A stretch of 60,556 nt of DNA. Source: Candidatus Moranbacteria bacterium RIFOXYB1_FULL_43_19 (GTDB lineage: Bacteria; Patescibacteriota; Minisyncoccia; Moranbacterales; UBA11712). The notes under the pieces are model-generated. The model saw only the letters and a list, made by a program, of their open reading frames with translations, was not told where the DNA came from and made no database searches. Shown here in pieces: positions 10,644 through 51,984 of this stretch; the stretch's first letter is position 1; every line of letters begins with the position of its first letter. Position numbers and translations under genes: made by a program. The DNA is taken from assembly GCA_001784875.1 (NCBI GenBank), contig MFSH01000006.1, positions 1 to 60,556 of the forward strand, read 5' to 3'.

Positions 10644-11222
10644 TTAATCTTTGATTTTTGATATAATACTTTCGAATATTTCCTCTTTGTCCTTCTCTCC
10701 ATCTAAAACCATCATATCCCAATCTTCTATTCTTTGCGCGTATATTTTTTCTTTCGCCGCCAAGTATTCCAACCCCTGATCCGGCTTTCGCTCGCGCCGC
10801 ATTATTTTTTCCGGATCAACTTTGAGATAAAAGGCAAAATCGGGCCAAGGAATGAATTTTTCCGCAAATATTTTACTTGGAAGTTCGGCTTCCAAGTAGT
10901 TTATATTCACCACGGTGTCATAAAAATATCTATCGCTTATAATATAATCAACCTTCAATTTCTTCAATAATCGATTAAATCTGCAAGTATCAATCATCAG
11001 CGCAAGTTTCCGCAATTGAATTTTCAACCAATTCGCTTTGGTTACGCTTCCAATATTTTGACTTTTGACCTTTGGCTTTTGACATAAATTCCCGATTGAA
11101 AACTCTACGGCATGAAAATAATAAAAAGACTTTCCCTGTGATCTCAGGCAATTTTTAAGCAATTCAATTTGAGTCGATTTTCCGGAGCCATCAGGACCGG
11201 AAATAGATAATAATATAGGCAT
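10644..11222 (-). CDS. Thymidylate-kinase-like P-loop kinase (divergent)
   Basis: ISGPDGSGKSTQ Walker A, IISDRYFYD, PD.AFYLKVDPE; start taken at MPILL (11222). Confidence 0.8.
   Translation of the reverse strand: MPILLSISGPDGSGKSTQIELLKNCLRSQGKSFYYFHAVEFSIGNLCQKPKVKSQNIGSVTKANWLKIQLRKLALMIDTCRFNRLLKKLKVDYIISDRYFYDTVVNINYLEAELPSKIFAEKFIPWPDFAFYLKVDPEKIMRRERKPDQGLEYLAAKEKIYAQRIEDWDMMVLDGEKDKEEIFESIISKIKD
10875..10897. repeat. Palindromic element inside the kinase CDS
   Basis: ACTTGGAAG-TTCGG-CTTCCAAGT; the 27-mer 10875-10901 is identical to 51805-51831. Confidence 0.85.
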
Positions 11223-11255
11223 TGACAAAATATATTTATTGTGCTTATATATAAT
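11222..11255 (+). promoter_or_regulatory. Putative sigma70 promoter for the small ORF at 11286
   Basis: TTGACA (11222-27), 18-nt spacer, TATATA(AT); followed by SD AAGGAGG (11269-75). Confidence 0.45.
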
Positions 11256-11285
11256 TAATCTGACGTTTAAGGAGGGAAGAAAAAT

Positions 11286-11513
11286 ATGGAAACTCAGATT
11301 GGGGCAAAAATGCCCGTCAGCCAACTATTAACCAACGCCTTCGTGACCCGAGGAGGAAAGCCCTTTTTGGCATCAGCGATTGGCGTAAACGTCACGATTT
11401 GCCCTGTTGACAGGGCGGGGCGAGTCATTGGCAAAAAAGAGCTCCTGCCAGCCGGTGAATTTTATCTCGAGGTCATCCATCCGGACGACCTGCGCAAATT
11501 TAGCGGGAGATAA
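11286..11513 (+). CDS. Small hypothetical protein (75 aa)
   Basis: Strong SD AAGGAGG, candidate promoter upstream and terminator downstream; opposite strand to both neighbours. Confidence 0.75.
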   Translation: METQIGAKMPVSQLLTNAFVTRGGKPFLASAIGVNVTICPVDRAGRVIGKKELLPAGEFYLEVIHPDDLRKFSGR

Positions 11514-11540
11514 CCCGAAATGCAGAAAAAACCTGTTCAG

Positions 11541-11584
11541 CGCCCTTATTATAGGCAGCCTCATCGCCTGTGATAAGGGCTTTT
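11541..11584 (+). terminator. Long-stem intrinsic terminator
   Basis: GCCCTTATTATAGGC-AGCCTCATC-GCCTGTGATAAGGGC (15-bp stem with G:U pairs) then TTTTT. Confidence 0.75.
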
Positions 11585-11605
11585 ATTTATCCTAAAAAAC
11601 TAATC

Positions 11606-13129
11606 CTAATACATCAGCACCGCCACCGGTTCCATTTTCGCCACTACGTGAGCAACACCATTGTCTTCAACACCTGCAATGACCTTGTTAATATCTTTAT
11701 ATCTTGCGGAATCCTGATCGACAACTATTCGCGACCGGGCGTTATAAAGCCGCACGCCTTTATCTTTCATTTTTGCAAACAGTTCATCTTTTGTGGTGAT
11801 GGATTTTTCTTTTTCATTTTTTCCTTTTCCGGTGCCGTGGGGAGCGGAGAAAAAACTATCCTCATTTTTGTCCGTCCCGACGCAAATATAGGCATCGGTG
11901 GACATGGAAGAGGGAACGAACACCGGCTCGCCGGTTTTTTTGTAAACCGGATGATTGGCCATTCTGGCCGGCCCAAAAGACCGCGAAGTGTTGCTGCGAT
12001 GGACCCAAACATCGTTCCCGAAATGATTTTCTTTGGATATTGATATGTGGGGCATATCATAAATCAAATCCATCTCCGGATCGCGGTTGAAAAGTTTTTT
12101 GATTGTTTGCGAGATGTTGTGAGTGATGACCGCCCTGTTAGCCGAGCCAAAATTGGAAGCAGCGGCTCGAGCGTCCATATACATTTTGCCATCCGGGCCG
12201 TCGGCACCGTACCTTAGGAGCGAGTTGTCTCCCCGCATATGGCGCTTTATATTCTTTTGCATTTCATAATAAATATCTTTTTTTCTCGAGCCGAATGTCA
12301 ATTTGCCCAGACTGACCATCGTTGATTGGGATATGTGCTCCCGTTTCTTGGCGGTATGGGTATACATAGTGTATTGTCCTAAAATTCCGGAACCGGTATG
12401 AACCATGAAAAGGTACTGCCCTTTTTTAAGTCCTAGAATTTCCGCCATTTCGGGATCAACGAGATCGGACACTTTCATGAGATCTAAAAAATGGTTCCCG
12501 GCCGCACCGAGGATGCCCAAGCGAAATTTGGCAAAAAATAGAAATAATTTCGGAATAACGTCAAAAATATCCTGGCGCGTCACTTCACGCGAAAAAAAAT
12601 TTCCGCCGTTTTGGGTATTTTCCAATTCGTTTTTAGTTTTGATTCCGAGGTAATCAATGACGGCTCGCGTGCCTTTCCGGCAGATGTCTACGACGACATC
12701 AAAAGGGACTTTTGTTCCGACGAGTTTTTTGGTAGGAACCGCTTTTATCAGCTCTTGAAAAAGTTTTTCAATCTGTTCCGGCGAAAAATTATCTTCCGAG
12801 AGATTCGTCTTGAGAAGTCGCATACCGCAGTTGGGATCGGAATCGTTGACTTGAGGAAGAATATATTTTTCGGAAACAACCACTGTTCCGGACGCATTTT
12901 TCCGGCCTGGTTTTGATGAGACATCCGGCATAGCCACAAGATTGTGAAAAAGGGTATCCGGATTGGAAGCCACGTCCTCCAGTTTGTTCCAGGTCTCATC
13001 TTCAGGAAGCAGGTCTTCGCTCATGAAAAAAATTGCCGGAACTTTCATTTTGTCCGTCTGGAATTTCTTTTTATGAGCGGTTAGGGATTCTATCTTGTGT
13101 TCCATGATTCTTGGTTCTTCAATCGACAT
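11606..13129 (-). CDS. Divergent RtcB-family protein
   Basis: MPDV, DPNCGMRL, GNHFL, MVHTGS, YDMPH, VHR, APHGTG, YKD motifs align with the RtcB metal and guanylylation sites. Confidence 0.88.
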   Translation of the reverse strand: MSIEEPRIMEHKIESLTAHKKKFQTDKMKVPAIFFMSEDLLPEDETWNKLEDVASNPDTLFHNLVAMPDVSSKPGRKNASGTVVVSEKYILPQVNDSDPNCGMRLLKTNLSEDNFSPEQIEKLFQELIKAVPTKKLVGTKVPFDVVVDICRKGTRAVIDYLGIKTKNELENTQNGGNFFSREVTRQDIFDVIPKLFLFFAKFRLGILGAAGNHFLDLMKVSDLVDPEMAEILGLKKGQYLFMVHTGSGILGQYTMYTHTAKKREHISQSTMVSLGKLTFGSRKKDIYYEMQKNIKRHMRGDNSLLRYGADGPDGKMYMDARAAASNFGSANRAVITHNISQTIKKLFNRDPEMDLIYDMPHISISKENHFGNDVWVHRSNTSRSFGPARMANHPVYKKTGEPVFVPSSMSTDAYICVGTDKNEDSFFSAPHGTGKGKNEKEKSITTKDELFAKMKDKGVRLYNARSRIVVDQDSARYKDINKVIAGVEDNGVAHVVAKMEPVAVLMY

Positions 13130-13131
13130 AT

Positions 13132-13157
13132 ATTCTAGTTCACTGGAGAACTAGAAT
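13132..13157. other. Perfect 10-bp hairpin just upstream of the RtcB-like start codon
   Basis: ATTCTAGTTC-ACTGGA-GAACTAGAAT; start codon at 13129. Confidence 0.6.
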
Positions 13158-13166
13158 CTTTGCTGA

Positions 13167-14297
13167 TTATTTGAAAATTATTTCGGAATAGATTTTTTCG
13201 TATTCCTCGACAATTTTCATTATATCAAAATTTTCCCTCGCGAATCGCAGGCCTTTTTCACCAAGCTCGCGCCGCGCCTCTGAATTGTTGTGTAAATAAA
13301 GTATCTTTTCTTTGAGCGCTGCATGGTCACCAACCTCAATTAAGATGCTGTTCTCACTGTTCAAAAAATATTTCAGCCTTTCCAGATTGCTTGCAATCAC
13401 CGGTTTTCCGCAAGCCATCGCCTCCGGAATTACAAGGGGAATATCGAATTTTCCGGCCATCGTCCGGGCGGGAAAAATAGAGATGTCGCAGAGGTTGAAA
13501 ATATCCTCCATGACATAACTCCCGTCATCGATAAATACCACTTGACCCAAAGCTTCTTCCTTCTCAAATCTTTTTCTCACTTCTTGCTTCTTTTCAGCGT
13601 CTTTTCCATTTTTCACCCGGACAGCCAGATGTAATTTGAGATTTTTGTTAACTTTCGCCAGATCGGAAAAAACCGAAACAATGTCGTCCATATCTCCCAG
13701 CCGAACATATTCGCCAGTATAATTTATCACGAAGTCATTTTCTTTTGTTTCAAATTTTTGCATCAGCTCCGGTTTTTTTGGGGCGGGAGAGAATAAACTG
13801 ATATCAATTCCAGGATAAATTCTTTTCACATTGCTAAATCCAATTTTTTCAAGTTTTTCTTTGGAATAGTCGGAGTAGGCGATGATTAGATCGGCGTAGA
13901 TTATTCTTTTTAAATGTTCGTCGCCATAAATATCATCCCGAAGCGTAGCCAGCGTCTGAATGGTTTTCAATTTCTTGTTTCGTAAACACATTTTCAGCGC
14001 AAAAACATTCAATTTTGTCGGTGTGAAAAAAGAGTGGATAATATCATAATCCTTCCCGCCCTTCAAAAAAATTTCTTTGACTAGGAATAAGTATGCCCGC
14101 ACTTTTTGCCCAAAATCCCACTTTGGAGATGTATAAATCTTGTGCTGAACAACATTTTCCGGAAGATCTGCTACTTTGCCAAAGGTCAAAAGATGCACCT
14201 CGAAATCCCGTGCGTGCTTTGCCAGAGTATACGCGAAATCTTTGGATCCCTCGTCCCACGGCGGACAAATCGGCCGGGTTAGTAAAAGTATTCTCAT
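13167..14297 (-). CDS. Glycosyltransferase family 4
   Basis: PWDEGSK, IYPGID, DIPLVIPEAMACGKPVIAS (GT-B EX7E-like region). Confidence 0.9.
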   Translation of the reverse strand: MRILLLTRPICPPWDEGSKDFAYTLAKHARDFEVHLLTFGKVADLPENVVQHKIYTSPKWDFGQKVRAYLFLVKEIFLKGGKDYDIIHSFFTPTKLNVFALKMCLRNKKLKTIQTLATLRDDIYGDEHLKRIIYADLIIAYSDYSKEKLEKIGFSNVKRIYPGIDISLFSPAPKKPELMQKFETKENDFVINYTGEYVRLGDMDDIVSVFSDLAKVNKNLKLHLAVRVKNGKDAEKKQEVRKRFEKEEALGQVVFIDDGSYVMEDIFNLCDISIFPARTMAGKFDIPLVIPEAMACGKPVIASNLERLKYFLNSENSILIEVGDHAALKEKILYLHNNSEARRELGEKGLRFARENFDIMKIVEEYEKIYSEIIFK

Positions 14298-14695
14298 TTC
14301 AAATTCTTATAAATTCTATACTTCAGGTCTTTCGCGCTGATTTCAAGCGAAACTCTTGCATCATTTTTTCTTTCAAGGTCAAAAAGCGGCGCGACCTGTC
14401 GTGTTTCGCCGGCTTCAATTTCGACTTGGCCTTCGGCAATCTTTTTTCCATCGGCCAAAATTTCATAGCTGTATTTCATTTTCTCGCCTTCATGGTTTTC
14501 AATCGCAAAATCAAGCGAATCACCCGCCTGCAGCGATGCAGCAGCTTCGGGAAGGTCCCGCGGATTTTCAAAATAGGCGACGCTCCACGATTTTTTGTAG
14601 TCGAGATCGTGGTTTTTTGTCTCGACGACGAAAAGCACCGAAAAACTGACAAGAAGAAGAATTATGGTTGCAATGACAATAATTTTGGAGGACAT
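14294..14695 (-). CDS. Membrane-anchored small hypothetical protein (DUF1616-like Ig-type domain possible)
   Basis: N-terminal TM from MSSKIIVI (14695), then a beta-rich domain; the in-frame upstream extension to 14758 is repeat-derived. Confidence 0.7.
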   Translation of the reverse strand: MSSKIIVIATIILLLVSFSVLFVVETKNHDLDYKKSWSVAYFENPRDLPEAAASLQAGDSLDFAIENHEGEKMKYSYEILADGKKIAEGQVEIEAGETRQVAPLFDLERKNDARVSLEISAKDLKYRIYKNLK

Positions 14696-14703
14696 AATTT
14701 TCC

Positions 14704-14763
14704 AAAGCTCGGCTTTTTCCTCCCTCCCTTCGCGAAGGGAGGGATTCCTCAAAGCCAAGCTTT
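14704..14763. repeat. Nested palindromic element
   Basis: AAAGCTCGGCTTT (14704-16) and AAAGCCAAGCTTT (14751-63) are inverted (12/13); they flank the perfect palindrome TCCCTCCCTTCGCGAAGGGAGGGA (14721-44). Confidence 0.75.
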
Positions 14764-16625
14764 TAGTTTCGTTTAAAAACCGAAATGTAATTTGAACTAT
14801 ATATCTTGGAAAAATCCGGATATTGTTCGAAACTGTTTCCTTCGAGTTGAGCGTTCAGGACGACGTAATTCACTCCTGTTTCTGAAAAGCACAGTCTTCC
14901 CTGGTCGCTTTCGGGCTCCATGATCATGTCCCTCGTGCAGATTTCCCGAGGTTTTGTCGGATCAACATAGCGTGACAAATTCCCGCGGCTCAAAGGATAT
15001 CTATAGTCTTTCATAAAAAACAACTTGTACCAGGAATCGGCGTATATGTTCACATGGTCCTTGAGCACCACGTCCTTCGCGGTGTCCAACCTGTCGGCCA
15101 AATACTGGGCGGAATGAAAGGTCTGGATGGCTTCCTGAAACTGCGGCCGGGTCTTGAATGCTTCGGCGCTGTCAGCCATTCCATCCGTGATCACAAAAAA
15201 CAGCAGAACGAAAAGGAGGACGGAAGAAAAAAAGACAGTCGAACTCTTTTTGAAAAGCCTCAAAAATTCAACCAGGCCAAAAGCGGCAAGCAGAGAAAGC
15301 GGAAGATACAGATAATTCCCGATCCGGTCGCTGGGAATATTGACATAGAGCCACCCCGGCTTCGCGCTCATGAGGAGCAATACGGCTGCCCAGGCGAGAG
15401 CGAAGCTGAATTGGTAATCTTTCCTATTAAAAACCCAAAAAAGCAATGCGAACCCCAAAGCGCCAAGAATTAGCCTCGCGCTTCCGGCATTTGCCTCTAT
15501 CTGATTGAAGCTTAGTCCGACTCTGGTTATTTTTGACGGCTCGCCGGTGGCCTGGCTGACAGCCGAAGGGTTGAAATAAGAGGGAGTAAATATAAGTAAA
15601 AAGTAAAAAGTTAAAAGAAAAAGGATGACTATCGGGAAAGGCTTTAAAAATATTTTCAGCCAATCGCCCATGATTTTGAAAGCCCGCTCAAAATTGAGCC
15701 CGAGATGGAGCAAAATAATCGCGGCGATTGAATAAAGCAAAATAAAACTTGAAAGATGGTGGGTATATAGAAGTCCGACACTCGAAAAAATAAAAAGGCT
15801 GGCAAAGACTGAATCTTTTTCTGAAAGCGCCCGATACAAAAAGTACAAAACAACCGGAATGAGCATGTTGCCGATGATATTTCCGACTACGCCGCCGCTA
15901 ACATACTTTGCTTGAGGGGCATTTATCGCGTATAAAACTCCGGTGACAAAAAAAGCCATGGCTGCTATTTTCGGGCTTTTGAAAATCCTTCCAGCGAGTA
16001 TTGACAGAGCAAATATCCCGACGATATTGAAAAAAAGCAAAACAAGGGCCGGCATCGCCCCTAAAATCGCCGCGCCGCTCAAAAGATTGAAAACCGAAAA
16101 AACCATATGTTCGCCGATAATAAAGTCCGGCATTCCGTAGTCAGGAAGCTGGCCGCTGTCAACAATTGCCTGACTCCAATACATATGGTGGCCCAGATCA
16201 GTGGAAGAGGGAATGATCGTATCCGAAAGATAAGTTGTTCGAATGAAAATCGCGAGAAATAGCGAGATCAGGATGAAAATTGCCTGCCAATAAGAAAAAT
16301 TAAAGAAATCATGCAATACTTCTTTTTTTCCGGCCTCTTTTTTTTCTTTTCCGGTGAAGCGAAATTGAAAAATTATATATCCGATAATCGAAAAAATGAG
16401 AATTGATCCAACGAGAACCGGTCCGCTCAAAAAAATATGCATCCGGTTGAGAAGCAAAACCAGAAAATCAACCGAAATCAAGCTCATAGGAACAGTGAGA
16501 ACTGCTTTTTCGAAAAAAGAAATTTTTGAATTTCTCCAGCCAAAAACAGCCAGTAAAAGACAGAATCCTGGGAGCACAAGCACGAAAGGAAAAGTCAAAA
16601 TGAGTTTTAGCAGATCTAAAATCAT
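14763..16625 (-). CDS. Multi-pass membrane protein, GT-C-like (DUF6541/DUF2206-like)
   Basis: 620 aa, more than 12 TM; VLPG...S.FEK N-terminus, luminal PSSTDLGHH, YTHHLS, C-terminal soluble domain. Confidence 0.7.
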   Translation of the reverse strand: MILDLLKLILTFPFVLVLPGFCLLLAVFGWRNSKISFFEKAVLTVPMSLISVDFLVLLLNRMHIFLSGPVLVGSILIFSIIGYIIFQFRFTGKEKKEAGKKEVLHDFFNFSYWQAIFILISLFLAIFIRTTYLSDTIIPSSTDLGHHMYWSQAIVDSGQLPDYGMPDFIIGEHMVFSVFNLLSGAAILGAMPALVLLFFNIVGIFALSILAGRIFKSPKIAAMAFFVTGVLYAINAPQAKYVSGGVVGNIIGNMLIPVVLYFLYRALSEKDSVFASLFIFSSVGLLYTHHLSSFILLYSIAAIILLHLGLNFERAFKIMGDWLKIFLKPFPIVILFLLTFYFLLIFTPSYFNPSAVSQATGEPSKITRVGLSFNQIEANAGSARLILGALGFALLFWVFNRKDYQFSFALAWAAVLLLMSAKPGWLYVNIPSDRIGNYLYLPLSLLAAFGLVEFLRLFKKSSTVFFSSVLLFVLLFFVITDGMADSAEAFKTRPQFQEAIQTFHSAQYLADRLDTAKDVVLKDHVNIYADSWYKLFFMKDYRYPLSRGNLSRYVDPTKPREICTRDMIMEPESDQGRLCFSETGVNYVVLNAQLEGNSFEQYPDFSKIYSSNYISVFKRN

Positions 16626-16626
16626 A

Positions 16627-17733
16627 CTAGGTTTTTTCTATGACTTCTAAATATCTTCTTGCAATCTTATCCCAACTATAATTCTCAAGCGTAAATTGGC
16701 TGGCTTTTTCTCCGAATTTTTTTCGGAAATCATCATCAGACAAGATTTTTTTTATTTTTTTTTCCCAGATATCCGCTTTTTCCGGCTCGAGAAGAAATCC
16801 GTTTTGTCCATCTTTTACTGCGTCCCGAAGCCCCTCAAGATCAGCCGCCAAAACAACTCTTCTGCAAGCGGCCGCCTCAATAGCAGTTATACCGAATCCT
16901 TCCAGAGACCCATGAACTTTTATGTTCGGGGAAATGTATAAATCGCACACATTGAAAAGAATCTTCATTTGCGGCCTTGGCAGGTTGAGCATCAGCTTCA
17001 CTCGATTTCGCATTCCCAGATCTTTGACCGCTTTTTCGCATTTCGGATAATAGTTTTCATCCCCCGCGGTTTTCCTCGCGATTCCGCCGCCCGCCGCGAC
17101 CAATAAATAATTTTCCGGAAGTTTCGTCATCACATTTCGAATAAACCATTCCACGCCCTTATGCTTTGTGAATCTTCCGCCCCTGAAAATCACTTTTTTA
17201 CCGCCAAGGTCAATTCCGAGTAGCTTCTCCAGGTCTTTTCCATTATCTTTGGAAATTATTTCATTCATGTCGAACCCATTGGGCACGAATTCGCATTTTT
17301 CTTCCGGAATTCCCAATTTTTGCGCTTCAGCAATCGTTTCTCTTCCGACCATGATCAAACGGTCAAGTTTTTTGAGAGATGGTATATTGACACTCCTGTA
17401 TACTTTTCCAAGAAATGATTTTTTATGTGCAAAAGTAATGTCCAAGCCATGCACTATAGAAATATATTTTTTCTTTCGGAAAAAAGTTTTCCAAAGAACT
17501 GCAAGGGGAGACAGAATGCCGTCACCAATGAGAACAACGTCATATTTTGGAATGACAAAAAAGGATTTCAGTGCAACCCAGGGCAAAAAAAACGGCAGAT
17601 TTTTTTTCCCAAGTTTATTGGCGATTATTCTCGTCGGGGTGATTTCGGAGAGGGCATGAGCAATGCCATAGTTCTGATTCTCGATGCCTCCCAAAACCGG
17701 CGGGTAAGCCCGGGAAATAAAGAGTATTTTCAT
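16627..17733 (-). CDS. Glycosyltransferase family 4
   Basis: YPPVLGGIE, VHGLD, VPNG, EGFGITAIEAAAC. Confidence 0.92.
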   Translation of the reverse strand: MKILFISRAYPPVLGGIENQNYGIAHALSEITPTRIIANKLGKKNLPFFLPWVALKSFFVIPKYDVVLIGDGILSPLAVLWKTFFRKKKYISIVHGLDITFAHKKSFLGKVYRSVNIPSLKKLDRLIMVGRETIAEAQKLGIPEEKCEFVPNGFDMNEIISKDNGKDLEKLLGIDLGGKKVIFRGGRFTKHKGVEWFIRNVMTKLPENYLLVAAGGGIARKTAGDENYYPKCEKAVKDLGMRNRVKLMLNLPRPQMKILFNVCDLYISPNIKVHGSLEGFGITAIEAAACRRVVLAADLEGLRDAVKDGQNGFLLEPEKADIWEKKIKKILSDDDFRKKFGEKASQFTLENYSWDKIARRYLEVIEKT

Positions 17734-17788
17734 AAAAAAGCCACAAAATTACTATACCACAGCCAGCCAAAAAAATCGAGCTTTCTAT

Positions 17789-17817: not shown

Positions 17818-17826
17818 AATAGCAGC

Positions 17827-34342: not shown

Positions 34343-34407
34343 TTGAAGGTTCGACATTGAGGAATTTTCCGACGAATAGTCGGAAAAGGGAAAGGTCGAA
34401 CCTTGAA
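34343..34407. repeat. Nested palindromic element upstream of the nuclease gene
   Basis: TTGAAGGTTCGACATT vs AAGGTCGAACCTTGAA (14/16 inverted), flanking TTTTCCGAC-GAATA-GTCGGAAAA. Confidence 0.75.
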
Positions 34408-34482: not shown

Positions 34483-34609
34483 GAAAGAAATCAGCCTGTT
34501 TGAAATACCGCCCTTGCGCGAATAGTGATATAGTGATAATATATTGCCAAACAAGTATTTGAAAGATGGCAGCGCAACGAGAAAGAGTGCAGGAGCAAGA
34601 AATAAATTT

Positions 34610-35740
34610 ATGGCGACCAAATCATCGAACAAAAATTTGCACAAGGCGAGCCTTGCCAAGAAAGACGAGTTTTACACTCAACTTGACGATATTGAGAAAG
34701 AGCTAAAACACTACAAAGATCAATTTCGGGGCAAGGTTGTTTATTGCAATTGCGATGATCCGTTTGAGAGCAATTTTTTTAAGTATTTTGCTTCCAATTT
34801 CAACGCGTTAAAGCTAAAAAAACTTATCGCCACAAGCTATGTCAAGTCGCCGATTGTTGGTGGCCAATTGTCTTTATTTGAAATGGAAGGATTGAAGCCG
34901 GAAGGCAAGGAGCCGTTCAAAATCGAAATTAGCGAGGTGTCGGACGTTAATTCTGATGGTGCGGTTGGCCTCACAGATATCGAGTGGTTGCTTCGACATG
35001 ATGCCAATGTCTCGTCGTCCCTCAAGGATGGCGGCGATTTCCGCAGCCAGGAATGTATTGAGCTACTCAAAGAAGCTGATATAGTCGTAACTAATCCGCC
35101 ATTCTCTCTGTTTCGGGAGTATCTCACACAACTCATTGAATACAACAAAAAATTTTTGATTATTGGTAACGTAAATGCAATTACTTATAGAGAGTGTTTC
35201 AAGCTTATAAAAGATAATAAAATGTGGCTCGGGGCAAGCATTCATAGTGGCGATCGAGAGTTTCGAGTGCCCGACAGTTATCCGCTTAATGCGGCAGGGT
35301 TTAGAGTTGATGAAAATGGCAATAAATACATTCGTGTCAAAGGCGTACGTTGGTTCACAAATTTAGACTACAAGGAGCGTCACGAAGAGTTGACCTTGTA
35401 TAAAAATTACAATCCTGAAGAATATCCAAAATATGAGAATTATGATGCAATTAATGTCAATAAGGTTTTAGAAATTCCGAAGGATTATAATGGTATTATT
35501 GGTGTACCAATTACCTTTCTCGATAAATATAATCCGGAACAATTCGAGATTATTGGTTTAGGTATATCTAATTCGGGAAAAGAAATTGGGGTTAAGCCAT
35601 ATAAAGAAGAGCATAAAAAATATAGAAAAGAAATTCAAAAAAGAGGTGCCGTTGATGGTGATTTATATATGATTACAAAAGGAATAGTTGATGTTCCCTA
35701 TGCGAGAGTTATTATAAAAAATAAGAAAGCAAAAAAATAA
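34610..35740 (+). CDS. Adenine-specific DNA methyltransferase, EcoRI family
   Basis: KKDEFYTQL, VYCNCDDPFESNF, GDFRSQEC, VVTNPPFSLFREY (motif IV NPPF), WFTNLD, YARVIIK. Confidence 0.92.
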   Translation: MATKSSNKNLHKASLAKKDEFYTQLDDIEKELKHYKDQFRGKVVYCNCDDPFESNFFKYFASNFNALKLKKLIATSYVKSPIVGGQLSLFEMEGLKPEGKEPFKIEISEVSDVNSDGAVGLTDIEWLLRHDANVSSSLKDGGDFRSQECIELLKEADIVVTNPPFSLFREYLTQLIEYNKKFLIIGNVNAITYRECFKLIKDNKMWLGASIHSGDREFRVPDSYPLNAAGFRVDENGNKYIRVKGVRWFTNLDYKERHEELTLYKNYNPEEYPKYENYDAINVNKVLEIPKDYNGIIGVPITFLDKYNPEQFEIIGLGISNSGKEIGVKPYKEEHKKYRKEIQKRGAVDGDLYMITKGIVDVPYARVIIKNKKAKK

Positions 35741-35761: not shown

Positions 35762-35784
35762 TTCCTAAAGTCGAACTTTAGGAA
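35762..35784. repeat. Perfect palindrome at the MTase-rhuM junction
   Basis: TTCCTAAAGT-CGA-ACTTTAGGAA; same GT-CGA-AC core as the 20679 and 34392 repeats. Confidence 0.75.
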
Positions 35785-35795: not shown

Positions 35796-36833
35796 ATGCC
35801 CAAGAAAAAATTGCCGGACAATCAAATAGCGTTTTATCAGACTCCGGACGGGTCGGTGAACATTGAAGTGCTTTTCGCCCGCGAAAACATGTGGCTCACG
35901 CAAAAGCGAATGGCCGAGCTTTTTGATACGACCGCTCAAAATATTACGATGCATCTGAAAAATATCTACTCTGAAGGAGAATTAGAAGAGCGGGCAACTT
36001 GTAAGGATTTCTTACAAGTTCAAAAAGAGGGAGAAAGAGAAGTAAAGAGAAATCTGACTTTTTATTCCCTCGAAGCCATTATAGCTGTCGGTTATCGCGT
36101 CAATTCTGAACGCGGCACTCAATTCCGCCAGTGGGCGATTGCCATCTTGAAAGAATATATTCACAAGGGCTTTGCTTTGGACAGCGACCGTTTCAAACAC
36201 GGATCAAGATTCAGCGCCAGATTCTTTGACGATTTGCTGGAAGAAATTCGTGACATCAGAAGCAGCGAGAGGATGCTTTATCAGAAAATCACCGATATTT
36301 ACGCGACAGCGATCGATTATTCGCCGAAAACGGAAATCACCAAAAAATTTTTCGCCGCCGTCCAAAACAAATTGCATTTCGCCATCACTGGCAAAACCGC
36401 CGCGGAAATAATCAGCGAGCGGGTGAGCAGCAAAAAGAATAAATTAGGTCTGACCTCGTGGCACCGTGGACCGAAAGGAAAAATAATGCCAAGCGACGTC
36501 GTAATCGCAAAAAATTATTTGAACAGGAAAGAACTCGATCATCTGAACAGAATAGTTTCCTTGTATCTTGATTATGCCGAATTGCAGGCCGCGAGAAGAA
36601 AGCCGATGCGCATGAAAGATTGGGCGGAAAAACTGAACGCATTTTTGAAATTTAGCGAATATGAAATTTTGACCAACGCCGGGAAAATAAGCCATGAAGT
36701 CGCGGAGAGTTTGGCTTTGGGTGAATACGAAAAATTCAACAAGATTCAGGATAAAAACTATATTTCCGATTTTGACCGCGAAGTCAAGAAAATATTAGGC
36801 GTTAAAAATAAGAAAAAAAAGCATGAAAATTGA
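35796..36833 (+). CDS. RhuM family protein
   Basis: WLTQKRMAELF, YSLEAIIAVGYRVNSERGTQFRQWA, IRDIRSSER..YQKITDIYA, VQNKLHFA. Confidence 0.93.
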   Translation: MPKKKLPDNQIAFYQTPDGSVNIEVLFARENMWLTQKRMAELFDTTAQNITMHLKNIYSEGELEERATCKDFLQVQKEGEREVKRNLTFYSLEAIIAVGYRVNSERGTQFRQWAIAILKEYIHKGFALDSDRFKHGSRFSARFFDDLLEEIRDIRSSERMLYQKITDIYATAIDYSPKTEITKKFFAAVQNKLHFAITGKTAAEIISERVSSKKNKLGLTSWHRGPKGKIMPSDVVIAKNYLNRKELDHLNRIVSLYLDYAELQAARRKPMRMKDWAEKLNAFLKFSEYEILTNAGKISHEVAESLALGEYEKFNKIQDKNYISDFDREVKKILGVKNKKKKHEN

Positions 36834-45081: not shown

Positions 45082-45101
45082 TCGCTTTTGATTTTTCCGA
45101 A

Positions 45102-45754: not shown

Positions 45755-45763
45755 CATGAGTAA

Positions 45764-45792
45764 ATTATAGCATTTTTTCAATTATATTTCAA
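45764..45792 (-). promoter_or_regulatory. Sigma70 promoter upstream of thpR
   Basis: Minus strand TTGAAA-17 nt-TATAAT with extended TG; predicted start about 45757. Confidence 0.7.
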
Positions 45793-45803
45793 CCCAAAAA
45801 AGC

Positions 45804-48110
45804 CTATTGATCTATGCTCAGCTGGTAGACCACAATCGTATCCGATTTTTTGTCGGAACGGATTTCTGTTCCATCCGCCGCAAAAACACCAAAGGTAATG
45901 TCATTTTCTCCCGGCTGGATATCGCTTAGGTCCACTGAAATCGCCTGCTTTTGATTGATACTGGTGATATATTTGTTATAAACTTCGTTTCCGTTGAGAA
46001 ACACTTTTGCTCTGAGAGGTTTTGCCACTTTCAAATTGAAATTCATCTCGCCGCTTTGCACAGCGCCGGTCATATTCACCAGCTTCACTCCCGCCCCATT
46101 TTCGGCCCAGCGATGAAGGCCATTTTTCGACTTGCTTTTTCCGACCCAGTGATTGTTTGAATAGTCCATCGCCAGAAACATATGATTGGGCTTTTCTCCG
46201 ACATCAATCTTGCAGGCATAAAGATACTCATCCTGATATTCATCCGCGCATTTTATCACATTCTGGACATATGCTTGAGCTGAATAAAACATATTCAAAT
46301 CGCCCTTGGCCGGATTGCCTTTGAGCCCCTCTTTGTCCAATATTATATAGCGAATATTGTAATAATTCAGTATTTCACTTGAAATGTCATAATATGAATC
46401 TTTCATCATGTCCCGGTCATTGCCGTTGCTCCCGCCCGGCAAATCATAAAGAATTGTTCGAATGATCGGAGTTCCCCGCTGGAAAGTATAGTGATCGTCA
46501 ATCACCCGGGCAAAGTCATATCCGTTGACGGTGTTTTTGCGATGAATGCTTTTCCAGACCAAATCGCGCGATGCAAAGTCGTAATCCGTGCTTCCAGGAA
46601 CTTCAAGGACGCTGTAGTTTTCTTTGTCCTGCCCAAGCTTTTCATAAAAAGAAGAATGCAGCAGTAAGTTTGTTTTGATCGGAACAGCAAGATACTCAAT
46701 GACAATTATTATGGAAATTGCAAAAAATATAATCTTCTGCCCGAGATTGTTCCCGAATAAATAGGCTAACTCTTTTTCCTCTTTGTTTTCATTCAGAACT
46801 TCTTCTTTTATTTTTTCGCTTTTATTTCTTTTTTTTGATATCAAGTACGCAGCTCCCCACGCCGCCAGGACAGAAAATGCCAGCATCGAATACACGAAAA
46901 GCCGCCCGACAGTGCGGATATTATTGAAAAACGGAAGGTAGTTGTAGGTCAAAAGATACGGCATCTTGACCGGCGGCTCGATTTGTCCCTTGAAGTGAAG
47001 ATACGGCCCGAGAGACAAAACATAGAAGCCGAGGGCAACTGCCAGCCAAAACCACTTTTTTGAAATTCGATCCTTGAAAAATGCGAAGATGGATAGCGCC
47101 AGCACCAGAAAACCGACGTAGACAGAAAAAGAGCTTTCAATTTTTCGCTCAAATGTGCCGCGCAGCTTGGCAAAGGCATCCGGCCAAAATGCGTGAAAGC
47201 TCGGCGGGATAAAAACGCTCAAGGTGTCATTTGAGTACTTCACGGCCGCTTTGAATCCCGGATTGAGATAATTATTTTCCGAGGAAGCAATCTTGAAAAG
47301 CGAGCGGAACATAAAAAAGAAAACCAGGGAAAGAACCAGAGCGCCAACAACAGCGTAAATCCAGAATTTTTTCCGCAGAAACACCTTTGGCTGGGTAAAA
47401 ATCTTATATACAAGAAAAAACAAGACAAAAATAAGAGAAAAAGCCAAAAGCTGGTGCTCCGTAAAGGCAATGATGGCCAGAAAAAGTCCGGCAAGAAAAA
47501 AGTATTTTACCTTGAGATTGCCTGCCCCGTTAGAAATTTCCGATGGTCCAGAGATTCGACCATTCGAAATATTTGCGTCTATATTTTTTGAACTGTTATC
47601 ATAATTTCTAACGGGGTCGAAAAATTTGAAAAGATACAGCGCGAAAAAAGGCAGCCACTCTTGATGCATTGTTCCCACGTTCGTGCTCAAAGAATTGTGA
47701 ACGTGGAACGGAGAAAAAGCAAAGATTATTCCGGCGATAAGAGAAGCCGGCTTGCTTCGGGTGAAATAAAAGGCCAAAAGATACATCCCAAAACCGGAAA
47801 GCACAAAAGACAAGAAAAAGAGAAGGTTATAGCCGGCTACGCGCCCGAAAATGATTTCAAAATAGGCATAGATCGTGACTATGTTGAATTCAGAACGCTT
47901 GGCAAGCTCAAGTGTTCCGCCAAAAAAACCATTGTCTTTGAGAACATTGACCCGTTCCCCCGCAACGCCGATAACCTGCATGGTGTCCGAGCCGAGACTT
48001 GGAACCGACGAGAAAAAATGCCAAGCAACCGGCCAAGTGAGGATGACCGTCAGCACTGCATAGAAAAGAATAACTCTAACTTTTTCGTTTTTAAAAATTT
48101 CTGTCTTCAT
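45804..48110 (-). CDS. Large multi-pass membrane protein, GT-C / YfhO-like
   Basis: LGSD, GRVAGYNLL, FAFSPFH, LSLGP, IRTVGR, C-terminal extracellular domain; 768 aa. Confidence 0.75.
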   Translation of the reverse strand: MKTEIFKNEKVRVILFYAVLTVILTWPVAWHFFSSVPSLGSDTMQVIGVAGERVNVLKDNGFFGGTLELAKRSEFNIVTIYAYFEIIFGRVAGYNLLFFLSFVLSGFGMYLLAFYFTRSKPASLIAGIIFAFSPFHVHNSLSTNVGTMHQEWLPFFALYLFKFFDPVRNYDNSSKNIDANISNGRISGPSEISNGAGNLKVKYFFLAGLFLAIIAFTEHQLLAFSLIFVLFFLVYKIFTQPKVFLRKKFWIYAVVGALVLSLVFFFMFRSLFKIASSENNYLNPGFKAAVKYSNDTLSVFIPPSFHAFWPDAFAKLRGTFERKIESSFSVYVGFLVLALSIFAFFKDRISKKWFWLAVALGFYVLSLGPYLHFKGQIEPPVKMPYLLTYNYLPFFNNIRTVGRLFVYSMLAFSVLAAWGAAYLISKKRNKSEKIKEEVLNENKEEKELAYLFGNNLGQKIIFFAISIIIVIEYLAVPIKTNLLLHSSFYEKLGQDKENYSVLEVPGSTDYDFASRDLVWKSIHRKNTVNGYDFARVIDDHYTFQRGTPIIRTILYDLPGGSNGNDRDMMKDSYYDISSEILNYYNIRYIILDKEGLKGNPAKGDLNMFYSAQAYVQNVIKCADEYQDEYLYACKIDVGEKPNHMFLAMDYSNNHWVGKSKSKNGLHRWAENGAGVKLVNMTGAVQSGEMNFNLKVAKPLRAKVFLNGNEVYNKYITSINQKQAISVDLSDIQPGENDITFGVFAADGTEIRSDKKSDTIVVYQLSIDQ
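47525..47616. mobile_element. 92-bp inverted-repeat element inserted in frame
   Basis: CCCCGTTAGAAATT / AATTTCTAACGGGG, perfect 14-bp termini; encodes PVRNYDNSS...SEISNG between TM segments. Confidence 0.85.
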
Positions 48111-48111
48111 G

Positions 48112-48173
48112 TTCTAATTTCTAATAAAATGACCAATATCTAATGCCGAAAAATTAGTAATTGGAAATTGGAA
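48112..48173. repeat. Head-to-head heptamer arrays
   Basis: TTCTAAT x2, GACCAAT, ATCTAAT ... ATTAGTA ATTGGAA ATTGGAA. Confidence 0.7.
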
Positions 48174-48176
48174 ATT

Positions 48177-48905
48177 TTATTTATATTTACCCTTCCAATA
48201 ATTCACCCTGATTTTCACAAGATCAAGGATCATATTAATCGGATCGCGAACCAGCCTTACGTGACTCTCGGGAGGATTTTGGAGCGATATTGGGAGTTCC
48301 CTGATTTTGTATTTCAATTTATTGGCAATGAATATGACTTCTGCGTCAAAAGCAAACCTCTCCACCGTCACTCGGGAGAAAATATCCATAGCTGCTTTTC
48401 TTCGGAATACTTTGAAGCCGCATTGAGTGTCCCTCACGTTCCAGTCATTGATTATAGTCATACGAAGAATTTGGAAAACCTTTTCCATAATCCGCCGATA
48501 CCAAACAACCGGCCGCACTATGCGAAGCCCTGGCACAAATCTCGAGGCGATAACAATATCGTACCCATTATCAAACTCAAGAACAAATTTTGGCAGTTCC
48601 TCAATCGGGATGCCAAGATCCGCGTCCAAAAACATCACCAGTTCGCAGGAGCTTTCTAAAATTCCCTGCTTCACAACCTTGCCTTTTCCCTGATTTGTTT
48701 TGTTGTCAATGATGCGAAGATGCAGATTCTCTTGAATTTTTTTCAGTTCTTTTGACGTTCCGTCAAAACTTCCGTCGTTCACGACAATTATTTCAAAAAC
48801 TCCAAACCGGTCTTTGAGAAAATTGTGTATCTTTGTTAGGTTTCTTTGGATAGTCTGCTCTTCGTTATACGCAGGAATAATGACTGATATTGCCTTGTTT
48901 TTCAT
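48177..48905 (-). CDS. GT2 polyprenyl-phosphate glycosyltransferase (Dol-P-Glc synthase-like)
   Basis: SVIIPAYNEE, VNDGS.D, NQGKG, FLDAD, DTQCGFK, RFAFDAE; start at MKNK (48905). Confidence 0.9.
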   Translation of the reverse strand: MKNKAISVIIPAYNEEQTIQRNLTKIHNFLKDRFGVFEIIVVNDGSFDGTSKELKKIQENLHLRIIDNKTNQGKGKVVKQGILESSCELVMFLDADLGIPIEELPKFVLEFDNGYDIVIASRFVPGLRIVRPVVWYRRIMEKVFQILRMTIINDWNVRDTQCGFKVFRRKAAMDIFSRVTVERFAFDAEVIFIANKLKYKIRELPISLQNPPESHVRLVRDPINMILDLVKIRVNYWKGKYK

Positions 48906-48966
48906 AAAAAAATAAGCCCGCAGTCTTTTCAAAACCATTATGCTATATTTTACAACAAATGGGCAT

Positions 48967-50709
48967 TTATTTCCACAAATCTTTCCAAAATATACGGTTT
49001 GATTTCTCGTTTTCCTCTCCTGCGCTTTTATAGGTCGGCAAGAGCTGGCCGGCAAAATTTTCTTTCAGAGCCAATTTGTATACTCCTACAGCGCCGATTT
49101 TGTTTTGCTCGCCAGCCTCAAATTCCGCCTGTATTTTTTTATCAATCGGCAATTTTTTCGTCCGTGTCAGCCCCATTGCGAAAACGCATTTTTCCTCGTC
49201 TCCTGTTTTCAGGCTGCTTATGGAAATAGCTTTTATTCCTTTTTGCTCCAACAAATATTTCACGGGCCTTTTATACTCGGCAGGCGCATTGTAATACACT
49301 TCCTTTTCTGAACAGTTTTTCTCCATATATTCTGTGGCTTTTTCAAGGTGCCAAAGAACAATTCCGTCTTTAGCTTTGAGAATTATTGTCCGCCGGGGAT
49401 AAGTCCCTTTTTTCTGGGCTGCTTCGATTTCCTTAAACCAGGCAAATGTCCCAACCAAGTTTCCGAAGAATATGACCAGAAGGACAGCCGCGACACAAAC
49501 CTTCCAAAATGCGTGCCTCTTTCGCCAGAATAATGTCGCGATATACCCTGCAAATATGAACGGCAGCCCTAAAAGAGGAAGAAAAAATCTCGGCCGGATC
49601 TGATAGGCCACAGGAATATACGTGAGAAAATAAACCAAAAACCAGAGGAGCGAAACCAGGATAAAGTTTTTTTTCACCAAGTTTTTTTCCTGACGGAAAG
49701 ATCGAAGACCGACGTAAAGCGCCGGTAAAATTGCGCCCAACCAGGCTAGAGCCGCGCTGCTTATCCCGCTTTTACGGCTTATCCAACTGGTCAGAATAAG
49801 CAACCAATTCTGCCCCCAATACCGCACATCCCGATTCACATTTTTCCAAAAACTGTGCGCTGATGGCTTTTCTTTGAGCGCCAGCATGAATTGACGGGTA
49901 TTTTCTCCTTTGGAGGCAATTTCATTCAAAATCACCGGGATATACACCAAAAGGACAATCGCCAAAAACAAAAGGATATATTTCCAGTTGAGCGCTTTTC
50001 TTGCATATTTCCAGTTGAAAATAATGAATAATACTGTAATCACAGGCAGCGTAAGAAAAGAAAGAAAATGAAGCTGGGTCGAAACGGCGAAAGAAAATCC
50101 GGCCAGAACCACCCAGCGAAGCCGGTATTTTATTCCCTCGCCCCGCACTGTTTTCCCTTTTTCAACAGGGTGCGGTATTTCTTTGTCCTGCTTATTTTTT
50201 GCTAAAGAAGTGGCGCAGGGTAAATCGAATACATTGAGAAGCGAAAAGAAAAAAAGAAGATTGAAGAAGACGAGACCGTTTGGATTCCAGGCAAAGCGGG
50301 AATATTGGACTCCCAAAAAGCAAACGGCGTAGAGGCTCGCCAGGATCATCGACCAGTCACGCGAAAAGTATTTCTTGGAAAACACATAGAAAAGCGGGAT
50401 GGACAGAATTCCGAACAGAAGATCCGGAAATGCCAGGACCGCCGGATGGGCGCTTTGAAAAAGAACGGCCGCAGCATATTGGAAATAGTAGAAGGCCGGC
50501 CCAAGATTGAGATCTGTTCCGCCAGCTTTTGGTCCAAGGAGCGGCAGCCAGCCGGGGCCCAGTTCAAGGGCTTGCCGAATGGTAGATGCGTCCCGCGCCT
50601 GGTCCATCTTGAAAAAAAGCCAATCGGAAAAATTTGATACGCGAAGAAAAACCGCGAGGGCAATAATGGCAAAAAATAAGATTATTTTCCAGTTTGGTTT
50701 GGATTTCAT
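48967..50709 (-). CDS. GT39/ArnT/PMT-like membrane glycosyltransferase
   Basis: LRVSNF...KMDQARD, LLGPKAG...LGPAFYYF, YSRFAWNPN, QLHF, PRFF. Confidence 0.8.
   Translation of the reverse strand: MKSKPNWKIILFFAIIALAVFLRVSNFSDWLFFKMDQARDASTIRQALELGPGWLPLLGPKAGGTDLNLGPAFYYFQYAAAVLFQSAHPAVLAFPDLLFGILSIPLFYVFSKKYFSRDWSMILASLYAVCFLGVQYSRFAWNPNGLVFFNLLFFFSLLNVFDLPCATSLAKNKQDKEIPHPVEKGKTVRGEGIKYRLRWVVLAGFSFAVSTQLHFLSFLTLPVITVLFIIFNWKYARKALNWKYILLFLAIVLLVYIPVILNEIASKGENTRQFMLALKEKPSAHSFWKNVNRDVRYWGQNWLLILTSWISRKSGISSAALAWLGAILPALYVGLRSFRQEKNLVKKNFILVSLLWFLVYFLTYIPVAYQIRPRFFLPLLGLPFIFAGYIATLFWRKRHAFWKVCVAAVLLVIFFGNLVGTFAWFKEIEAAQKKGTYPRRTIILKAKDGIVLWHLEKATEYMEKNCSEKEVYYNAPAEYKRPVKYLLEQKGIKAISISSLKTGDEEKCVFAMGLTRTKKLPIDKKIQAEFEAGEQNKIGAVGVYKLALKENFAGQLLPTYKSAGEENEKSNRIFWKDLWK
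50141..50221. repeat. Degenerate inverted-repeat element in frame in the GT39 gene
   Basis: CCCCGCAC...TGGCGCAGGGT with an internal CCGCAC-TGTT / AACA-GG-GTGCGG hairpin; hydrophilic insert of about 27 aa. Confidence 0.45.
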
Positions 50710-50779
50710 GAAACCATTCTTTGAATTAAAAAGTTTTTATGAAAGGGGAAGCTTGCTATGGCCTCCCCCTCCAGACTGT

Positions 50780-50980
50780 CTAGAGATTGTCAAATATTCT
50801 TGATTTGAACCACTCCGGGTCGGGGTTTGGAGGACCGGCGAGTGGATTGGCGTAATAGAATCCATCTCGATGATTCATACGATCGAATCTTTTCCGGAAT
50901 TCCCTTTTTTCTCTCCGCAGGCGCTTAATCATTTTTCTCATGCGCCAAAAAAGCAAGAAACGACTTCTCCAGTTCCGCAT
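50780..50980 (-). CDS. Small, very basic hypothetical protein (66 aa)
   Basis: SD GAGGAGG 5 nt before ATG; Arg/Lys-rich N-terminal half, Pro-rich C-terminal half. Confidence 0.7.
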   Translation of the reverse strand: MRNWRSRFLLFWRMRKMIKRLRREKREFRKRFDRMNHRDGFYYANPLAGPPNPDPEWFKSRIFDNL

Positions 50981-50991
50981 ATGTCCCTCCT

Positions 50992-51984
50992 CTATTTGCC
51001 ACGTTTGGCAATTTTAAAAATAAAAATTCTTTTTTTTATTAATCCAAATAAATTCCAAATAACGCTCCCCCATGCTTTGAGAATCACAAGCGCTACTTTG
51101 CCCTTGCTGTATCCTTTTACAAATTCAGTTTCCCGCTTCTTGTTTTTGAATATGTTCAAGACTAACTGCAGATAGCTCAAAAATCGCCAAAAAAATGCTT
51201 CTATCATTTCTCCGAAGGAGAAATTCTTGATAACCATGAAAAAATAATTCCGATGCAGATAATAGGCTTTCAAAAGCGATGCCTTTCCCGCCGTTCCGCT
51301 ATGGACATGGTATGCCAACGCTTGCGGACAAAAATAGGATTTGAATCCGGCTTTTTTCATCCGCCAGGCCAAATCCACGTCCTCATAAAAAGCAAAATGG
51401 TCTTCGTCAAAATAATTATTCCCGGGAAAAGCCGTCTTTTCCAGCGCTTGCCGGGTAAACAGCGAAGCTGTCCCGTTTGCGCCAAAAATTTCTTTTTCGT
51501 CGCTGTATTTTTTTTCATCTTTTCCGTATCCCCTGTTGTGCGCCGTCCCGTCACGTGAAATATATATTCCCGCGCAGTCGATTTTATTTTTTTCAAAAAA
51601 ATTCAGAACCTTCGGCTGGATCGATCCGGCCTCGGGACGATTTTCGGCGCAACTCTGCAACTCCTTGACGTATTTTTCATCCAGCTTCGTGTCGTTGTTG
51701 AGAACAATGACATAATTGATATTTTTGTCTTCGAGAGCTTTTTTTATTCCTGTGTTGTATCCAAAGCAAAAGCCAGTATTCGCTCTCAACTGAACAATCT
51801 CCAAACTTGGAAGTTCGGCTTCCAAGTAGTTAGCTTTTATAAAATCAACCGAATCGTCTTCCGAACCATTGTCCACAAAAATCACTTTGAAATTTTTTTC
51901 TGTCTGCGCTTCGAGCGAATCAAAACAATCTTTGAGATACTTTTTTCCGTTCCAGTTGACAATGATAACTGCAATTTTATACAT
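50992..51984 (-). CDS. Glycosyltransferase family 2
   Basis: IIVNWNG, VDNGSED, NTGFCFGYN, LNNDT, GANGTASL, FAFYEDVDLAWR. Confidence 0.92.
   Translation of the reverse strand: MYKIAVIIVNWNGKKYLKDCFDSLEAQTEKNFKVIFVDNGSEDDSVDFIKANYLEAELPSLEIVQLRANTGFCFGYNTGIKKALEDKNINYVIVLNNDTKLDEKYVKELQSCAENRPEAGSIQPKVLNFFEKNKIDCAGIYISRDGTAHNRGYGKDEKKYSDEKEIFGANGTASLFTRQALEKTAFPGNNYFDEDHFAFYEDVDLAWRMKKAGFKSYFCPQALAYHVHSGTAGKASLLKAYYLHRNYFFMVIKNFSFGEMIEAFFWRFLSYLQLVLNIFKNKKRETEFVKGYSKGKVALVILKAWGSVIWNLFGLIKKRIFIFKIAKRGK
51805..51827. repeat. Palindromic element inside the GT2 CDS
   Basis: ACTTGGAAG-TTCGG-CTTCCAAGT, identical to 10875-10897; both encode LEAELPS. Confidence 0.85.

Follow-up and report, generated by a model that had tools for sequence, protein, structure and literature searches.

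Two in-frame palindromes of a Moranbacteria contig probably belong to a REP-like hairpin family partnered with a RAYT-like transposase

Introduction

The 60,556-nt (60.5-kb) contig MFSH01000006.1 of a Candidatus Moranbacteria genome, which belongs to the Patescibacteria (Candidate Phyla Radiation, CPR) and is referred to here in its whole length as the window, carries the same palindromic 27-mer in two unrelated genes, where it is translated as NYLEAELPS. The question raised by this locus is how one palindrome came to lie in frame in both genes, and what keeps its two copies identical. An initial annotation, made from the sequence alone, had read it as a 27-bp mobile palindrome that spread recently into coding sequence. 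Here, we compared the two copies with their orthologous sites and with related hairpins in genomes, metagenomes and viral contigs. The results suggest that the window palindromes are copies of a Patescibacteria-specific family of hairpins resembling repetitive extragenic palindromic (REP) sequences, partnered with a Y1 (HUH) single-stranded DNA (ssDNA) transposase that resembles the REP-associated tyrosine transposases (RAYTs); we put the probability of this reading at roughly 0.7. REP/RAYT systems and REPINs (REP doublets forming hairpins) are established (PMC3116915, PMC5581495), and our full-text literature searches returned nothing on REP/RAYT in CPR.

Results

The window contains two copies of a 23-nt hairpin

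Exact matches to the 27-mer, ACTTGGAAGTTCGGCTTCCAAGTAGTT, were found at 10875-10901 and 51805-51831 in plus-strand coordinates of the window. On the minus strand both copies read in frame as AAC TAC TTG GAA GCC GAA CTT CCA AGT, in agreement with the initially reported identity of strand, frame and peptide. The 27-mer is the sole long exact repeat within the window; no further match was present there at up to three mismatches, and none occurred in 100 shuffles, which rules out a chance repeat. An artefact of assembly or chimera formation was likewise ruled out, since the same codons are hairpin-filled in independent assemblies.

Although the repeat proved identical over 27/27 nucleotides, the proposed unit of 27 nt did not hold. 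The extra 4 nt (AACT) correspond to the Asn codon plus the first base of the Tyr codon, Asn-Tyr residues occur also in orthologues without the hairpin, and none of 39 other sites with the same 23-mer has the AACT extension. Because these 4 nt are thus ancestral Asn-Tyr codons and are missing at the other 23-mer sites, the shared element is 23 nt and a 27-nt unit was rejected. The palindrome proper consists of 9-bp arms plus a T.G pair, with a TCG loop between them; in the kinase-like gene, a flanking T...A lengthens the stem to 10 bp. Folded as RNA, the window hairpin reaches -13 to -15 kcal/mol (z about -7). The two host genes encode a dTMP-kinase-like P-loop protein and a family-2 glycosyltransferase (GT2) (Table 1). 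In the AlphaFold model of the GT2 protein (predicted local distance difference test, pLDDT, 88.7), residues 54-60 (LEAELPS) are predicted to be exactly the loop joining helix 45-53 to strand 61-65, in line with the surface loop that had been expected for the insert.

The hairpin belongs to a family dispersed across Patescibacteria

Searching a single genome per species for the pattern ACTTGGAARN5YTTCCAAGT yielded at least 160 sites, spread over at least 120 stretches of genome. Almost all of them are from Patescibacteria and cover many classes, which include Saccharibacteria, Paceibacteria, Giovannoni-, Moran-, Nomura-, Campbell- and Kaiserbacteria. Among the matches listed, stems of at least 10 bp (10-11) were formed in the centre that the pattern leaves unconstrained at 133 of 160 sites (83%), compared with about 12% expected. 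The 2.9 million viral contigs of IMG/VR gave five matches, all with stems of 8-9 bp (0/5 with at least 10 bp), which is chance level and rules out a phage-borne element. A known RNA family was ruled out as well, Rfam 15 giving no match at gathering score anywhere in the window.

The core of the family is 23 nt long, with an ACTTGG foot, a co-varying top and a loop of 1-5 nt. A relaxed search beside transposase genes showed that only the 6-bp foot ACTTGG/CCAAGT is invariant, and that the upper stem differs with full base-pair compensation (e.g. ACTTGGGT..ACCCAAGT and ACTTGGCG..CGCCAAGT). Upper stem and loop are variable between genomes and largely uniform inside one genome. Among the matches listed, at least nine copies lie on five contigs of the metagenome-assembled genome KR11_S3.mb.10 and at least five in H52-bin030_1. 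The palindrome continues into the flanks at 55% of all sites, and by at least 3 bp at 23% of all sites versus 1.6% expected; the preferred outward dinucleotides are GG, TG and GA. About a quarter of the hairpins are thus centred in a longer site-specific palindrome, as at L016, L023, L025, L053, L086 and L113. An A-run and a T-run often stand on opposite sides of these longer palindromes, as if the hairpin had entered the loop of a pre-existing terminator-like stem.

A RAYT-like Y1 transposase adjoins the hairpins

A Y1_Tnp protein of 211-236 aa (about 215 aa) adjoins the hairpins in 22 of 120 genome loci, among the matches listed, and in 4 of 41 metagenome loci. These transposase loci carry three to five hairpins each, placed at -37 to -49, +176 to +191, +437 to +470 and +640 to +669 relative to the transposase gene, so that in about 20 loci the gene is bracketed by hairpins some 40 nt upstream of its ATG and at its stop codon. 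Inside the RAYT-like open reading frames (ORFs), too, one or two conserved positions in indel-prone loops (codons ~60 and ~150) are occupied in frame by the hairpin, which is read there as LGSxxSK and has the same top as the flanking copies.

The protein matches Pfam Y1_Tnp at 33-36 bits (cut-off 23), and its sole NCBIfam match is the sub-threshold REP_Tyr_transpos. Its HUH motif (NHYHF) and catalytic-Tyr motif (SAYVNLN) are invariant in 21 and 40 sequences. Searching the PDB with the sequence, singly or as a profile, returned nothing meaningful, and the fold search alone was productive: for an AlphaFold2 model (pLDDT 78), the best match was 4er8_A (E 1.4e-4, TM 0.42/0.53), which is E. coli TnpA-REP with a bound REP hairpin, followed by the TnpA proteins of IS608 and ISDra2. 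A Y1/HUH transposase that is bracketed by hairpins and has this best fold match points to a REP/RAYT-type system. The search for homologues gave 3279 proteins, of which those with a named source are almost always from Patescibacteria-group bacteria and one is annotated as RayT. Many of them sit on 1-3-kb contigs, which indicates that the hairpins break assemblies.

Hairpins are uniform within loci, and the window variant flanks RAYT-like genes

Within RAYT loci, 51% of hairpin pairs have the same 11-nt top, as against 2.7% for the same slot between loci; this within-locus uniformity is concerted evolution. The exact 23-mer of the window was found at 39 distinct sites in metagenomes, and it flanks a RAYT gene in loci L150, L154 and L164, of which the L164 transposase comes from Moranbacteria RIFOXYB1_FULL_43_19. 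Moreover, the last 93 nt of the window (60464-60556) are 100% identical to L164 11654-11746, and the sequences upstream differ. The window therefore ends within a repeat found at two or more loci, and its contig probably broke there. The shared 93 nt comprise the 3' end of a minus-strand gene and a terminator-like hairpin, CCGCAGC..GCTGCGG. An 86%-identical RAYT (P0244), a GT2 orthologue (P0006) and a kinase orthologue (P0198) all come from Moranbacteria GW2011_GWC1_45_18, in which the three genes appear to share one contig. From these associations, the genome of the window probably also encodes a RAYT-like enzyme.

The window variant also forms head-to-head, REPIN-like doublets with opposite loop orientation and spacers of 2-3 nt (Table 1). 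Partly overlapping or nested copies were seen in L128, L134, L142 and L145. In the kinase-like gene of the window, the top GCCGAAC differs from that of all other kinase orthologues (ACTAAGT in three and ACTGAGT) and equals that of the GT2 copy, as predicted by homogenisation to the current variant of the genome. The 23/23 identity of the two window copies would thus be better explained by within-genome homogenisation to the RAYT-linked variant than by recent spread.

Orthologous sites are filled, and constraint acts on nucleotides

Many orthologues of both proteins have related peptides at the same position (e.g. NYLETEFPS, NYLETKFPS and NYLEAEFPS), and the hairpin-filled orthologues of both genes, from other Moranbacteria, share only 65-79% protein identity with those of the window. 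Of the recent spread of a mobile palindrome that had been proposed, the dispersed and transposase-associated family is thus retained, but the recent and private character is not. The initial annotation had also named an ancestral peptide in orthologues as evidence that would speak against an insertion. The peptide is indeed shared with orthologues, yet it is not ancestral to either family, because the outgroup loops are empty (NY-PE-TE in GT2; N[YF]LSGKNKK, such as NYLSGKNKK, in the kinase). Empty or decayed sites, e.g. NYSETGFSS and NYSKKTFPG, are found in many orthologues.

When six GT2 genes and five kinase genes, all of independent assemblies, were aligned by codon, TAC TTG GAA ... CCA AGT proved unchanged in every filled allele, and the centre of the hairpin varied with compensation (ACC..TTT, GCC..TTT with a G.T pair, and GCC..CTT). 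All five arm codons of the GT2 hairpin are identical across the six genes. Outside the hairpin, a single codon was used in all six genes at 20 of 163 amino-acid-conserved columns, and at none of those for Leu (0/13), Ser (0/9) or Pro (0/2). Because the arm codons are frozen at synonymous sites while codons elsewhere vary, the constraint on the hairpin acts on nucleotides and not on the peptide. Protein-level convergence on NYLExxLPS was ruled out on the same grounds.

The alignments to orthologues did not confirm a clean insertion of the palindrome. Between filled and empty sites the difference in length is +15 nt (GT2) and +3 nt (kinase), not 23 or 27, and inside the RAYT gene it is +6 nt, which shows that no unit of fixed size was cleanly pasted in. 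A sequence similar to the 5' arm TTGGAAAC, namely CCGGAAAC, is already present in the empty GT2 site (TAT CCG GAA ACA GAA). In neighbour-joining (NJ) trees, which were built without support values, filled and empty GT2 alleles were interleaved, and the filled kinase alleles were scattered in the leaf order. Either the hairpin entered the GT2 and kinase genes of Moranbacteria before the present lineages split, or it came more than once to the same permissive site of partial homology; NJ trees cannot separate a single origin followed by recombination from recurrent arrival.

Among 119 orthologues of the kinase, the loop that bears the hairpin is a hypervariable indel site. It is an insertion hotspot, at which unrelated in-frame palindromes are found in other lineages. 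The orthologue in L174 (124-726) contains an in-frame doublet of TTGGACATCagaGATGTCCAA and the GTAG-containing CGTAGACATcgaATGTCTACG, read as LDIRCPNRRHRMST, and that in L175 (201-857) has an imperfect palindrome of about 100 nt in the loop, read as CHSERSEAKSRNL...VGMT.

Most copies lie inside coding sequence

All six frames of the hairpin are free of stop codons. Among the matches listed, 93 of 163 sites (57%) are in stop-free stretches of at least 120 codons, a share that rises to 32 of 39 (82%) for the window variant. The phases of the 93 coding sites are 41 : 41 : 11, which correspond to the peptides LExx[LF]PS (41), LG[SN]xxSK (41) and TWKxxFQV (11). A Pfam scan of the ten longest hairpin-bearing ORFs matched nine. 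Seven are housekeeping proteins, namely a class-I aminoacyl-tRNA synthetase (IleRS/ValRS-type), DnaE, FtsK, RecG, GyrB, LigA and TopA, and the two others are a NeuB/cytidylyltransferase fusion and an LCAT-family protein. In these scanned ORFs the hairpin lies mostly between Pfam domains. Because there is no stop in six frames and two of the frames give short, loop-friendly peptides, the copies would persist mainly inside genes in gene-dense CPR genomes of about 1 Mb.

Other features of the window

The window contains 12 perfect hairpins with stems of at least 9 bp, compared with 1.8 expected from shuffles (Table 1). One of them, at 14721-14744, is the perfect 24-nt palindrome TCCCTCCCTTCGCGAAGGGAGGGA. 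A possible third relative of the family shows one compensated change from G:C to T:A against the family foot, and its translation within a RhuM-like ORF (35796-36833) is TCKDFLQV. This relative may be a divergent member of the family or native sequence of the RhuM-like protein family; variants of ACTTGTAAG also stand beside true copies in L148 and L159. The adjacent ORF (34544-35740), as read from its translation only, has an NPPF motif (VVTNPPFSLF), which we take to be typical of N6-adenine/N4-cytosine DNA methyltransferases. The kinase-like gene is located between rtcB and a gene for a Wzx/MurJ-type flippase, both in the window (9036-13129) and in L003, and the flippase is the only neighbour of the kinase seen in L170, L171 and L175. 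From this neighbourhood, the kinase-like protein may act in a glycan pathway and not in canonical dTMP phosphorylation.

Table 1 Coordinates of hairpins, host genes and related features
Feature	Position	Strand	Description
REP-type hairpin, copy 1	10875..10897	-	core ACTTGGAAG-TTCGG-CTTCCAAGT; 27-mer to 10901; (N)YLEAELPS in kinase-like gene
REP-type hairpin, copy 2	51805..51827	-	same 23-nt core; 27-mer to 51831; (N)YLEAELPS in GT2 gene
Host gene 1, dTMP-kinase-like P-loop protein, 192 aa	10644..11222	-	PF02223; Met 11222, stop 10644
Host gene 2, family-2 glycosyltransferase (GT2), 330 aa	50992..51984	-	PF00535/PF13641
RAYT-like genes with internal hairpins	L062 2120-2758; L119 5793-6458; L079 4582-5232; ~17 other loci		
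Doublets of the window variant	L126 4764-4812; L136 2203-2251; L146 2511-2558; L161 6155-6203		
Possible third, divergent relative	35996..36020	+	AACTTGTAAG-GATTT-CTTACAAGTT (AACTTGTAAGgatttCTTACAAGTT); 10-bp stem; membership uncertain
Other window hairpins	1172-1193, 4701-4725, 10376-10396, 13132-13157, 14721-14744, 34365-34387, 35762-35784, 52642-52668, 53971-53997		

Discussion

These results favour a REP-like hairpin family with a RAYT-like partner as the source of the two window copies. The RAYT-like enzyme may mobilise or renew the hairpins, which would survive mostly within genes, at surface loops and in linkers between domains. Rather than a clean paste, replacement or incorporation guided by microhomology, with subsequent selection for frame, would be the more likely mode of arrival. 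Once arrived at the GT2 and kinase sites, the hairpin would be kept perfect at the nucleotide level, and both window copies would carry the current RAYT-linked variant of the genome (top GCCGAAC / GTTCGGC) through replacement of one hairpin by another or through gene conversion, which the transposase would drive by acting on extruded single-stranded hairpins.

Several observations weigh against this reading. The length differences of +15, +3 and +6 nt make a simple IS200-type 'peel and paste' inadequate for the origin of the copies. Filled GT2 alleles share flanking differences from the empty ones (P to L; T to M/L/V), which favours one origin with recombination over repeated insertion, and the GT2 series from A-T through G.T to G-C resembles compensatory evolution in place and not replacement. 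The copy density is modest, at about two per 40-60 kb, with two copies in the window. No conserved GTAG/CGTC tag was found beside the hairpin, an outward AG (giving GTAG) being present at 18 of 402 flanks (4.5%) and the GTAG at the window copies stemming from the Tyr codon context; a GTAG-type REP was accordingly ruled out. The transposase scored 20-26 bits against the NCBIfam RAYT equivalog NF047646, whose cut-off is 80, and tblastn detected no RAYT-like gene within the window, which makes the link between the transposase and the genome of the window indirect. Transposition, cleavage and conversion by the RAYT-like enzyme are things that we can only infer.

The main alternative is a function for the host, which could also explain the frozen codons. 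In that case the hairpin would have entered each gene once, long ago, and purifying selection would act on a DNA or RNA stem-loop that serves in mRNA stabilisation or processing, as a pause site or as a binding site of a domesticated RAYT; the window copies would be alike through a shared trans-acting factor and not through ongoing mobility. The synonymously frozen arms across orthologues of 65-79% identity, the stepwise compensation via a G.T intermediate in GT2, the 6-bp foot that is invariant throughout the superphylum and the conserved slots inside the RAYT ORF all agree with this, as does the finding that RAYTs elsewhere behave like domesticated single-copy genes (PMC5581495). However, many orthologues have empty or decayed sites, the hosts of the hairpin are functionally unrelated, and the unrelated palindromes in the same kinase loop of other lineages indicate opportunistic occupancy of a permissive site. 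Together with the missing Rfam match and the lack of an intrinsic-terminator T-run, these points make a host function unlikely in our view.

If a very short mobile palindrome had jumped recently, in this genome, into two coding sites that were empty before, this would account for the 27/27 identity of the copies and for the interleaving of filled and empty alleles in the NJ trees of both families, and the same 23-mer does occur at 39 other sites. Yet at least six GT2 and at least five kinase orthologues from independent assemblies are filled at the same codons, the flanking substitutions are common to the filled alleles, the net gain is 15 and 3 nt and not 23 or 27, and ancestral Asn-Tyr codons make up 4 of the 27 nt, so that such a jump is improbable. 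We regard as very improbable any origin without a mobile element, whether an uptake-type signal accumulated by biased uptake and recombination, or local template switching at quasi-palindromes. In favour of such an origin, CPR bacteria are believed to import DNA, similarity to the 5' arm is present even in the empty GT2 site, and 23% of sites lie inside longer site-specific palindromes (1.6% expected). Half-sites, however, are not enriched in the window, which has 9 occurrences of ACTTGG and 12 of CCAAGT against about 15 expected for each 6-mer, and in which ACTTGGAA and TTCCAAGT are present four and three times, two of each within the two hairpins; this rules out uptake signal sequences or DNA uptake sequences (USS/DUS). 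Local template switching, for its part, cannot account for one and the same 23-mer at 39 unrelated sites or more, and the tight association with a Y1 transposase is explained by neither process.

A more far-reaching version of the REP/RAYT reading can be offered tentatively, and we consider it possible rather than probable: a partnership kept vertically across the superphylum, in which the transposase mainly rewrites hairpins in place, through exchange of one hairpin for another or conversion on ssDNA, instead of pasting new copies, and hairpins at fixed in-frame positions of essential genes and of the transposase gene evolve in concert with the enzyme. If so, this would be a self-maintaining system of nucleic-acid/protein recognition embedded in coding sequence, as well as a steady supply of small loop insertions in CPR proteins. 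The REP/RAYT reading itself, if confirmed, would extend REP/RAYT biology to the Candidate Phyla Radiation, and to an extreme case in which almost no intergenic space is available and the repeats live in genes as two recurrent peptides, LExx[LF]PS and LG[SN]xxSK. In practice, these peptides will cause spurious local similarity between unrelated CPR proteins, and the hairpins mark permissive protein loops. Orthologous in-gene copies whose top tracks the local transposase also provide a tractable case for studying RAYT domestication and the uniformity of REP populations.

Compared with known REP/RAYT systems (the E. coli REP with TnpA-REP, the Pseudomonas REPINs and the RAYT groups of Bertels et al. 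2017), the CPR hairpins are likewise short (20-40 nt) palindromes that appear to be dispersed, that are largely uniform within a genome and different between genomes and that form inverted doublets with spacers of 2-3 nt; likewise, they flank the gene of an IS200-like Y1/HUH protein, for which TnpA-REP (4er8) is the best match in fold. What sets them apart, besides the CPR host, is the absence of the GTAG/CGTC tag, a divergent transposase of about 215 aa that is far under the NCBIfam cut-off and has a C-terminal helical extension, hairpins inside the transposase ORF itself, and a 6-bp foot that is kept across a superphylum and not a genus. Copy numbers appear to be in the tens and not the hundreds. 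Most copies are intragenic and in frame, so that 'extragenic' does not describe them (57%, or 82% for the window variant, in long stop-free stretches).

Intragenic REPs, often in replication or repair genes, are on record (Di Nocera et al. 2013, PMC3733652), in a survey that lies outside CPR genomes. Like the hairpins described here, the GTAG/CGTC REPs of that survey lie wholly within ORFs and are translated, often in linkers or loops of replication and repair proteins (here DnaE, GyrB, LigA, TopA, RecG and FtsK); unlike them, intragenic copies are the minority there and the majority in CPR, and tag and sequence family differ. With the IS200/IS605 elements IS608 and ISDra2, the CPR system shares the catalytic fold, subterminal hairpins at both gene ends and an expected ssDNA mechanism. 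It differs in that the bare hairpin disperses and not the gene with its ends, in that left and right hairpins have the same sequence, and in that no conserved target or cleavage tetranucleotide was found at the hairpin flanks. Among the Rickettsia palindromic elements (RPEs), RPE-4 and RPE-6 are CGTC-tagged, repeats with the CGTC tag lack an associated transposase gene, and the RPE-1 insertion is a longer palindrome (PMC3733652). The CPR hairpin has no sequence relationship to RPEs, being a 23-nt element with an ACTTGG foot, a net gain of 1-5 residues and a Y1 transposase partner. The Rickettsia precedent invoked in the initial annotation is apt as far as the mode of working is concerned: both are palindromes translated in frame in many unrelated proteins, kept at orthologous positions and tolerated as surface peptides.

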